Source: Amphiura filiformis | Taxonomy: Eukaryota | Reading direction: 5' to 3' | Length of the DNA: 64,000 nucleotides | Assembly (NCBI RefSeq): GCF_039555335.1 | Contig: NC_092646.1 | Span: 36,859,911-36,923,910, forward strand | Part shown: one piece after another, positions 7,341 through 8,292 of the stretch | Numbering within the stretch: the stretch's first letter is position 1 | How the letters are laid out: each line of letters opens with the position of its first letter | Made by a program: the position numbers and the translations under genes | The notes under the pieces: model-generated | What the model was told of the DNA's origin: nothing | The model's input: the letters and a program-made list of their open reading frames with translations, nothing else | Databases searched by the model: none

Positions 7341-7653
7341 ACTGGTAACTGTGATATGATTTCAACTTATCCAATAATTTCACTCTGCTTCGGTTCACGT
7401 TATAAATACTTGCCTATGTGAATTAACTGTTCCATTATGTTGATACAGCTTATGGAATAATCATGGCGCATGCAATACTGTGCAGTTTTCTTTTTGTGAA
7501 TGCATTTTATACGCACCAACTGTCTACGGATACCGAGACCTGAACAGAAATGCTTCGAGGTACATTGAAAGATTGTACGAAACCTTCCAGGGTCAATTCA
7601 ATGCAACACGTACGAGACTCAACTTGAATTCGGTTCAATTTGGTGTTTTAACA

Positions 7654-8292
7654 ATGGGCAAAATATCATACAGAATTGGCGGCAGAAATGATTTTCGTCC
7701 GCTGCCTCTTACTTTTTCCAGTACCCTCCCGTGCACAAATACATGCCGCCCGTATGGCTGGTATCGTATAGGTCTGCCTCCACTTGCAAACTACCACGCT
7801 GCTGTTCCAACACGCTTAGGGTCACATAATAGGACCCATAGCGAAATGCAGTTGATGGACGCCTTCGATAAATTGATAGATACTCTTTCGTATCAAGATT
7901 TAACAGATGCCTACATACTAACATACTTCAGTCCATGCACTGAATGTGCTGAGAGACTACGAAGTCTGGCGCAACGATTTAATAATAGGCGGCGTCTTAT
8001 TAACTTCCACGTTGGTTACATGAAGGAATATGAGGAGCCAATGCAGCAACAGGACGGGTCTTGGATACGACTGCCTACCCTGGCTAGAACTGAAGAGATT
8101 CTTCGGAATTCGCAGAACGTCTTCTTTGGAAATGTAAGACGTTTCTGTCAGCCGAGGCAAAAACGGAATGCTAATGATAACTCCATCATTTGTGACCTTC
8201 CTGGTAAGATTTTAAAACGTAAAAGCTTTTTAAAAAACTTATATGTATCTGCTTTTGAATGGAATGTTCAGGAAAACAACACTAATGTGTGA
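7654..8292 (+). CDS. AID/APOBEC-like zinc-dependent cytidine deaminase candidate, single exon. 212 aa from first in-frame ATG; frame is open upstream to 7444 without an ATG
   Basis: HSEMQLMDAF...(29 aa)...YFSPCTECAERLRSLAQRF...RRRLINFHVGYMKEY matches AID HVELLFL...(27)...SWSPCYDCARHVADFL...LSLRIFTARLY. Catalytic H-x-E and P-C-x2-C zinc ligands with the right spacing. Confidence 0.6.
   Translation: MGKISYRIGGRNDFRPLPLTFSSTLPCTNTCRPYGWYRIGLPPLANYHAAVPTRLGSHNRTHSEMQLMDAFDKLIDTLSYQDLTDAYILTYFSPCTECAERLRSLAQRFNNRRRLINFHVGYMKEYEEPMQQQDGSWIRLPTLARTEEILRNSQNVFFGNVRRFCQPRQKRNANDNSIICDLPGKILKRKSFLKNLYVSAFEWNVQENNTNV

Follow-up and report, generated by a model that had tools for sequence, protein, structure and literature searches.

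Secreted AID/APOBEC-like deaminases, named SNAD1-4, have been described from vertebrates and sponges (PMC5889660), and the classical invertebrate AID/APOBEC-like clades, which are not characterised by a signal peptide, have been described as their sister group (PMC5956068). Hedgehog-related 'Hog' proteins with varied secreted N-terminal cargo are known from nematodes, cnidarians, and protists (Bürglin, 2008, PMC2362128). Here, we analyzed a 64,000-nucleotide stretch of Amphiura filiformis DNA (contig NC_092646.1, positions 36,859,911 to 36,923,910 of the forward strand; hereafter the window) that carries a gene for an AID/APOBEC-like deaminase, followed on the same strand by thrombospondin type 1 (TSP1) and Hint exons. 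A first-pass annotation, made from the letters alone, had noted a possible signal peptide in a different frame just upstream of the deaminase open reading frame (ORF). We found that this peptide matches the signal peptides of related deaminases, and it is very probable that a net -1 frameshift has displaced it from the deaminase frame. The interest of the locus lies in its architecture rather than in the frameshift, and we know of no account of the targets or the delivery mode of secreted AID/APOBEC-like deaminases.

A probable signal peptide one base out of frame with the deaminase

The deaminase frame starts directly after a TGA stop codon (7441–7443) and stays open across 7444–8292; the first ATG within it comes at 7654–7656, residue 71 of that frame. 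In the neighboring frame, an ATG at 7463 opens a short coding stretch for MAHAILCSFLFVNAFYTHQLSTDTET, which has a hydrophobic start (MAHAILCSFLFVNAF...) and ends at a stop codon at 7541–7543 (signal-peptide frame, 7463–7543). Both descriptions had been given in the first-pass annotation and were confirmed from the sequence. The ATG at 7463 lies in a Kozak-like context (A at -3, G at +4). As recorded, the peptide is out of frame with the deaminase domain, and one added base brings the two into frame. A consensus TATA box (TATAAATA, 7401–7408) stands 62 nucleotides upstream of this ATG. TATA-type boxes are likewise found 55–69 nucleotides upstream of the signal-peptide ATG at three related loci (L002, L004, and L006), and at L004 the box is an identical TATAAATA in a similar local context. 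The box at 7401–7408 is probably the core promoter of the deaminase gene, and we infer a transcription start from it.

Relatives of the window protein were sought by an exhaustive phmmer search of 1.84 billion cluster representatives (E ≤ 0.001). The search returned nine matches, all of them unnamed proteins, six at E values between 2e-20 and 2e-10. Eight are deaminase relatives (P0001–P0006, P0008, and P0009; cluster-mates P0010–P0012), while the ninth, P0007, a 2114-residue hypothetical protein from JGI/IMG, gave a weak and short match only. The deaminase relatives come exclusively from ENA metagenome assemblies or from Logan assemblies of sequencing runs. In every one of the eight, a hydrophobic N-terminal signal peptide is continuous with the segment that aligns upstream of the methionine encoded at 7654 (M7654); examples are P0003 (MMFPVLYYIAFASALTLVPTVRGWQQLSEANRRYIEQLYESF), P0002 read from its second methionine (MASILLCYIALASALTVIPDAHGYQPLSENNGRYIEQLYENF), and P0004 (MAFSLICCFGLVSVLVYTSYVHGYQPL...). 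When all 1183 stop-free, ATG-started 15-mers on both strands of the window were ranked by their likeness to these signal peptides, the MAHAILCSFLFVNAF peptide came first, with a score of 48 against 31 for the next best (z = 3.6). By its sequence, the peptide is homologous to the signal peptides of the relatives and is no chance feature.

The register of the relatives then locates the defect. Five of the short relatives have a conserved glycine at residue 23, namely P0002 (counted from MASILL), P0003, P0004, P0005, and P0006. From the ATG to the Tyr codon (7531–7533 in the window) there are 72 nucleotides, or 24 codons, in P0002 to P0005 but 71 in the window, which matches the Gly23 register only with one base added. 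A one-base repair yields MAHAILCSFLFVNAFLYAPTVYGYRDLNRNASRYIERLYETF, which aligns without gaps to P0002, P0003, and P0004. Any single-base insertion from 7466 to ~7540 restores a continuous ORF. A scan of all such insertions gave the best similarity to the homologues at 7503–7509, around the run of four T residues at 7505–7508, on a plateau of acceptable positions from ~7483 to 7515. This peak agrees with the earlier suggestion that a single-nucleotide indel near 7500–7520 would fuse the peptide to the deaminase frame. Net loss of one base is the simplest reading of the defect, and the recorded sequence would thus be one base short of the ancestral frame, most probably by one T of 7505–7508. 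Placed by the -3/-1 rule, the predicted cleavage site is V-Y-G/Y, after TVYG and before YRDL, and the corresponding sites of relatives read V-H-G/Y, V-R-G/W, and A-H-G/Y.

The in-frame signal peptides of all relatives support the proposal that this is a secreted deaminase with a frameshifted signal peptide. A further argument for secretion that had been drawn from N-x-S/T sequons carries little weight: the sequons NAS, NAT, and NRT are present, but they are not conserved in the homologues, and three in ~230 residues is, by a rough estimate, near chance expectation.

The two frames could also be reconciled by splicing. The deaminase exon might begin at an acceptor within 7444–7510, for example the AG at 7484–7485, with the signal peptide on an upstream exon and the 7463 peptide irrelevant. 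The genome has introns, and this AG would give phase 0 in the deaminase frame. Nevertheless, signal peptide and deaminase lie in one uninterrupted ORF at seven of seven related loci, the sequence before 7485 is not rich in pyrimidines, and the peptide of the 7463 frame is homologous to the signal peptides of the relatives at exactly the expected distance, with a TATA box at a conserved distance upstream of 7463. Further upstream, an ORF at 6818–7123 matches no family and 6989–7340 is an inverted-repeat element. We consider an acceptor in this interval extremely unlikely. Two specific candidates were rejected. The ORF at 6818–7123 was considered as a source of the signal peptide, but it matches no family and overlaps the inverted-repeat element. 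A mini-intron reconciling the frames finds no AG between 7486 and 7534, and the available span is only ~50 nucleotides.

Programmed -1 ribosomal frameshifting would also join the frames, which overlap over ~80 nucleotides with no stop codon in either. The probability of this mechanism is close to negligible: the zero-frame codons are GCA TTT TAT and no slippery heptamer (X XXY YYZ) stands in register, slippage by +1 at the T run would lead into the third frame, away from the deaminase frame, and the homologues need no frameshift.

The deaminase domain and its start

In the deaminase frame, the rest of exon 1 (7510–8203) covers the last residues of the signal peptide, then the AID/APOBEC-like deaminase domain, and finally a linker that contains Cys. 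The zinc-ligand His and catalytic Glu are found in an HSE motif at 7837–7845, and the zinc-binding PCxxC motif is PCTEC at 7933–7947; both are intact and at the spacing usual for the superfamily. In the family alignment, E112, P142, C143, and C146 are invariant and H110 is nearly invariant, and the window copy retains all invariant and nearly invariant residues of the family. The relatives strengthen the assignment. Pfam APOBEC_N cut-offs are passed by P0001, P0004, P0005, and P0006 (29.7–35.3 bits), with P0004 and P0005 also passing those of SNAD4 and NAD1, and 11 to 12 of the 12 relatives match APOBEC_N, NAD1, or SNAD4. A search of the PDB with the window sequence alone gave no deaminase match, while the family profile matched APOBEC3G (E 2e-9). 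The AlphaFold model of the window protein (predicted local distance difference test, pLDDT, 73.5; predicted template modeling score, pTM, 0.74) has a predicted cytidine-deaminase fold that is closest to APOBEC/AID structures. Judged on its motifs and profile matches, the assignment of the window ORF to the AID/APOBEC-like deaminases is firm once the relatives are included. In P0003 (L001, 10001–10678), a Leu replaces the zinc-ligand His of HxE (ILVED), and some family members are thus probably catalytically inactive.

The first-pass annotation had also allowed for translation from an unusual start, and such a start was weighed as a full alternative: the sequence would be correct and the gene functional, the ATG at 7463 would open a 26-codon upstream ORF, and a non-secreted or unusually initiated deaminase would start at M7654 or at a non-AUG codon such as the GTG at 7480. 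Two points speak for it: the sequence around the ATG at 7654 is favorable (A at -3, G at +4), and no stop codon interrupts the deaminase frame after 7444. However, M7654 aligns with a conserved internal Met or Leu of the relatives (FGVLTMG, FAVLTMG, and FAVMTLG in P0001, P0004, P0005, and P0006), and no homologue starts at the equivalent position. The 48 residues that precede it hold the invariant positions L11, Y18, V46, and T48, and in the AlphaFold 2 model, where M7654 is residue 49, they contain a helix (13–37) and a strand (45–48) with pLDDT of 80–88. A start at M7654 would, on this model, delete helix 1 and strand 1 of the core and would abolish secretion. A second short ORF (7550–7627) also stands ahead of the ATG at 7654, and initiation at GTG 7480 would yield QFSFCECILYA..., with an acidic residue in the hydrophobic core and a lower score against the homologues. 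We regard an unusual start as very unlikely; by the alignments, M7654 is conserved and internal, and no start codon.

Public data hold very few members of the family. Its relatives were recovered by the exhaustive phmmer search alone: searches of word-indexed proteins, with the window ORF and with the family profile, returned nothing new, and no record was identical to the window ORF, whether read from ATG 7654 or from GTG 7480. JGI metagenome contigs, scanned with the family alignment and for an exact 23-mer of the PCTEC region, contained neither a relative nor a second copy of the locus, and a scan of viral contigs was negative as well. None of the family members is named, and the family has probably escaped annotation. 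At this locus, a pipeline would miss the gene or start it at M7654, and the secretion signal would be lost either way. At two related loci, a MACPF (perforin-like) gene lies head-to-head with, and immediately upstream of, the deaminase gene (L005, 3003–4466; L006, 817–2310; both on the reverse strand), which hints at an immune or effector gene neighborhood.

Downstream exons, the conceptual precursor, and its present state

After the deaminase domain, the frame encodes a dibasic RQKR (8155–8166), probably a proprotein-convertase site, with equivalents in the relatives: RKRR in P0001, RAKR in P0004, RRKR in P0005, LRKR in P0009, IRRR in P0008, KRKR in P0006, and, in a shifted frame, NRKR at L004. 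Exon 1 (7463–8203) ends at a phase 1 splice donor (ctg/GTAAGA, 8204–8209). Phase 1 G/GTAAG donors are found at the equivalent site in L001, L005, and L006, and in the shifted frame at L004. The 'GK' and hydrophobic tail that end the short homologue ORFs are accounted for by read-through past this conserved donor into the intron. An earlier end of exon 1, at GGAAAT/GTAAGA (8133), was rejected; the homologues stay in frame to the LPG/GTAAG donor.

Three further exons follow on the forward strand. Exon 2 (10488–10646; acceptor ...ctacggtag/, donor gct/GTAAGT) encodes a TSP1 repeat (Pfam TSP_1, 31.2 bits against a cut-off of 21.6) with the characteristic W-x-x-W and Cys pattern (WGTWEAWGKCGVVCGGG...C...C). 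Exon 3 (11901–12041; ...cttatag/ and gtc/GTAAGT) encodes a Cys-rich TSP1-like repeat that is 64% identical to the second TSP1-like exon of L004 (tblastn, E 3e-6). Both are phase 1 at both ends. Exon 4 (13627–14279; acceptor ...ttttaccag/, phase 1; stop codon 14277–14279) encodes a Hint domain, the Hedgehog/intein-type autoprocessing module (Pfam Hint, E 6e-19, 68.9 bits against a cut-off of 29.7), which begins with S-CF at 13629–13637 and shares 78% identity with the Hint exon that follows the deaminase at L004. All junctions are phase 1 with consensus splice sites. The four exons sum to 1694 nucleotides, and one added base makes 1695, that is, 564 codons and a stop, with no internal stop; the conceptual product has APOBEC-like, TSP_1, and Hint matches in Pfam.

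The same order of deaminase, TSP1, TSP1-like, and Hint exons is found at L004, and at L001 some eleven TSP1 exons come after the deaminase exon. P0008–P0012 each have one uninterrupted ORF that covers the signal peptide, the deaminase, a dibasic site, and a Hog domain of canonical type (GCFP..., TPxH, SCY, GIHWY); one of these sequences comes from a 454-kb contig at 75x coverage and another from a 1.6-kb contig of a sequencing run. Between the window and L004, identity is 34–41% in the deaminase domain and 78% in Hint (window 13632–14276 against L004 17204–17848), and the linker can be aligned at the nucleotide level. This gap in identity fits a rapid diversification of the effector domain; exon 1 paralogy (non-orthologous first exons) could also explain it. 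The L004 deaminase exon changes frame near its 3' end (10620–10740), on a contig of 3.17x coverage. There, the frame ...RPNRKRNANDCPIICELPG/GTAAGA, which differs from the frame of the upstream ORF, matches QPRQKRNANDNSIICDLPG/GTAAGA of the window and gives the phase 1 donor; the frame change reflects either an error or a second frameshifted copy.

From this organization, a route to an exported deaminase can be proposed. With exon 1 repaired, the ATG at 7463 would be the true start and MAHAILCSFLFVNAF... the true signal peptide (~23 residues), followed by the zinc deaminase (HSE ... PCTEC) and the RQKR site, and splicing of exon 1 to the TSP1, TSP1-like, and Hint exons would give a precursor of 564 residues. 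The signal peptide would take this precursor into the endoplasmic reticulum and the secretory pathway, where Hint could cleave itself at S/CF through a Cys thioester, in the manner of the Hedgehog-related Hog proteins, and RQKR may be a target of a furin-type convertase. The deaminase would then either be set free or stay attached to the cell surface or matrix through its TSP1 repeats, a role that a sterol adduct might take over in proteins of the P0008 type. These steps are drawn from the domains and from what is established about signal peptides, furin sites, and the autoprocessing of Hedgehog. We infer from the sequence an enzymatically active product, extracellular or surface-associated, that would probably serve as an immune or conflict effector.

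Several points weigh against this reconstruction. The signal-peptide call is based on hydrophobicity, the -3/-1 rule, and homology. The window protein itself falls under the Pfam cut-offs for APOBEC_N (22.8–23.4 against 25 bits) and SNAD4 (20.8 against 27 bits), and it is also sub-threshold for NAD1 and APOBEC2. Loops 55–64 and 72–90 of the AlphaFold 2 model have low confidence. That the deaminase, TSP1, and Hint exons share one mRNA is suggested by strand, phase, and conserved order. The window Hint has no Thr at the TxxH site, no Cys at the position of Hedgehog C143, and no GIHWY motif, and its autoprocessing may be altered or lost; sterol transfer is doubtful in a Hint of this type, since these three features are absent. 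In place of the canonical motifs, it has HSKH, in which the His is kept, ISHED for FLDR, and ASVHM for SCY, as do the Hint domains of a paralogue in the window (1863–2506) and of L004, whereas P0008 and P0009 keep TPxH, FLDR, SCY, and HWY. A His at the position equivalent to Asp46 is also found in Nematostella Hedgehog. Lastly, the missing base may be an error of the assembly, and the gene of the animal would then be intact.

As sequenced, this copy cannot make the secreted precursor, judging by its reading frames: translation from the start at 7463 would end after 26 codons, and the deaminase frame would be left without a start. The explanation that we judge best, at an even level of confidence, is a true start and signal peptide followed by a real and very recent lesion, in a young pseudogene or a null allele. 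The same gene and signal peptide with an under-called base in a T-run homopolymer, by assembly or sequencing, and hence an intact secreted precursor, is a serious possibility that we put somewhat below even. A single-base defect fits a homopolymer error, with four T residues at 7505–7508 and runs of four and five at 7486–7495. The remaining 1.7 kb of coding sequence is flawless, with no stop codons, consensus splice sites, and all conserved residues kept, and the frame change in exon 1 of L004 could be an error of the same type. Against such an error, a run of four bases is short, and the window holds two paralogous units, the second described below, and the six remaining exons of these two paralogous units all stay in frame, which gives no hint that indel errors are frequent. 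In favor of a real lesion, fast-evolving tandem gene families commonly contain young pseudogenes and null alleles. We lean slightly towards a real recent lesion over an assembly error. Any inactivation would be very recent, since the window copy keeps every conserved residue of the family.

The window has the features of animal DNA: it has 37% GC and a CpG observed/expected ratio of 0.62, and contains GT-AG introns, TSP1 and Hint exons, the reverse transcriptase of a long interspersed nuclear element (LINE), and inverted repeats resembling miniature inverted-repeat transposable elements (MITEs). A second, 5'-truncated paralogous unit lies on the forward strand near the window start, with TSP1 (289–447), TSP1-like (571–750), and Hint (1863–2506) exons, all phase 1; its Hint exon is 90% identical to 13632–14276. 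With this second unit, the genes form a tandem duplication. Its first exon, perhaps another deaminase exon, would fall upstream of the window start.

Nested inverted repeats at 6989–7340 form a MITE-like hairpin (50-nucleotide arms, 6989–7038 and 7291–7340; 49-nucleotide arms, 7083–7131 and 7188–7236) that ends ~60 nucleotides upstream of the TATA box of the deaminase gene. Intron 1 holds a MITE-like repeat of ~390 bp (8645–9037) with 31-nucleotide terminal inverted repeats, and an 87% identical copy is found 14 kb downstream (22717–23086). Just before this repeat, at 8557–8620, is a decayed copy, ~66 nucleotides long, of the 3' part of exon 1 (8102–8166, ...NVFFGNVRRFCQPRQK...), with 91% identity over 45 nucleotides and a 1-nucleotide insertion, probably a relic of a partial duplication. 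The LINE-type retrotransposon (43834–46632, reverse strand) has a reverse-transcriptase match and at least five overlapping ORFs in different frames, which reflect either a decayed copy or indel errors; given other copies, this element could gauge the indel quality of the assembly. The window also contains an ORF at 52081–52920 (reverse strand) that encodes tandem repeats rich in proline (PPPPPGAYSAPPPP) together with an acidic motif, DDDMGFGLFDD, resembling the C-termini of ribosomal P proteins, and, separately, a tandem array with a period of ~136 bp at 38803–39480.

Comparison with secreted deaminases, Hog proteins, and bacterial toxins

SNADs, especially sponge SNAD4, resemble the window family in having a signal peptide before an AID/APOBEC-like zinc deaminase and in forming lineage-specific, multi-copy families with variable loop lengths (PMC5889660). 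P0004 and P0005 pass the Pfam cut-off of SNAD4 (27 bits); the window protein, at 20.8 bits, stays below it. The comparison with fish SNADs drawn in the first-pass annotation holds as an analogy between secreted deaminases; it does not extend to clade membership, since the relatives score about equally on the SNAD4, APOBEC_N, and NAD1 hidden Markov models, which leaves the family without an assignable clade. In the text of PMC5889660, we found no SNAD linked to TSP1 repeats or to Hint. With the classical invertebrate AID/APOBEC-like deaminases, the window family has in common the H[AS]E and PCxxC motifs and the fold, as well as rapid divergence and the expansion of paralogues seen in marine invertebrates (Liu et al., 2018, PMC5956068; Krishnan et al., 2018). 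What sets it apart from these classical clades is its signal peptide, together with a dibasic site for processing and modules of extracellular type.

Hog proteins, among them Hedgehog, nematode warthog, groundhog, and quahog, and those of cnidarians, share with the predicted precursor of the window gene the layout of a signal peptide, an N-terminal cargo, and a C-terminal Hint that begins with Cys-Phe (PMC2362128), and P0008–P0012 also retain the TPxH, SCY, and GIHWY motifs. Cargo and Hint are on one polypeptide in the single ORF of P0008–P0012; in the window, strand, phase, and the order at L004 point to the same arrangement. The cargo itself differs. It is a nucleic-acid deaminase, with no Hedge, Wart, Ground, or Qua domain, and in the window lineage TSP1 repeats stand between cargo and Hint. 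Three Nematostella Hog proteins with 'novel N-termini' (PMC2362128, supplement) were considered as possible deaminases and discarded, as they have no deaminase motifs. A literature search found no animal deaminase as the cargo of a Hog or Hint protein or joined to TSP1; its coverage was incomplete, and this is absence of evidence only.

Bacterial polymorphic toxins offer the third parallel, as they also combine an exported deaminase-fold effector with HINT (Iyer et al., 2011, PMC3239186; Zhang et al., 2012, PMC3482391), and several of the relatives weakly match the Toxin-deaminase (BURPS668_1122) model. In the bacterial toxins, HINT precedes a C-terminal toxin (PMC3239186), whereas here the deaminase is N-terminal and Hint is C-terminal, as in Hedgehog. 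The window gene further differs from them in its spliceosomal introns, its TSP1 repeats, and its place in an animal genome.

Collectively, the sequence comparisons present the locus as a new combination of two known kinds of system, a secreted deaminase and Hint. We propose, with a confidence that stands midway between doubt and conviction, that a class of Hedgehog-like (Hog) precursors so far undescribed, with a secreted AID/APOBEC-like deaminase as cargo, exists in some marine animals. The deaminase would be fused directly to a canonical sterol-type Hog domain in P0008–P0012; in the window and at L004, a furin-type site and TSP1 repeats would connect it to a divergent Hint. A deaminase as Hedgehog-type cargo, with a conserved dibasic site and adhesion repeats, suggests a testable route of export, tethering, and release. 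If the proposal is correct, a nucleic-acid mutator would be exported, processed, and possibly tethered to lipid or matrix like a morphogen, for use against pathogens or competitors, and it would be an animal counterpart of the HINT-released deaminase toxins of bacteria.

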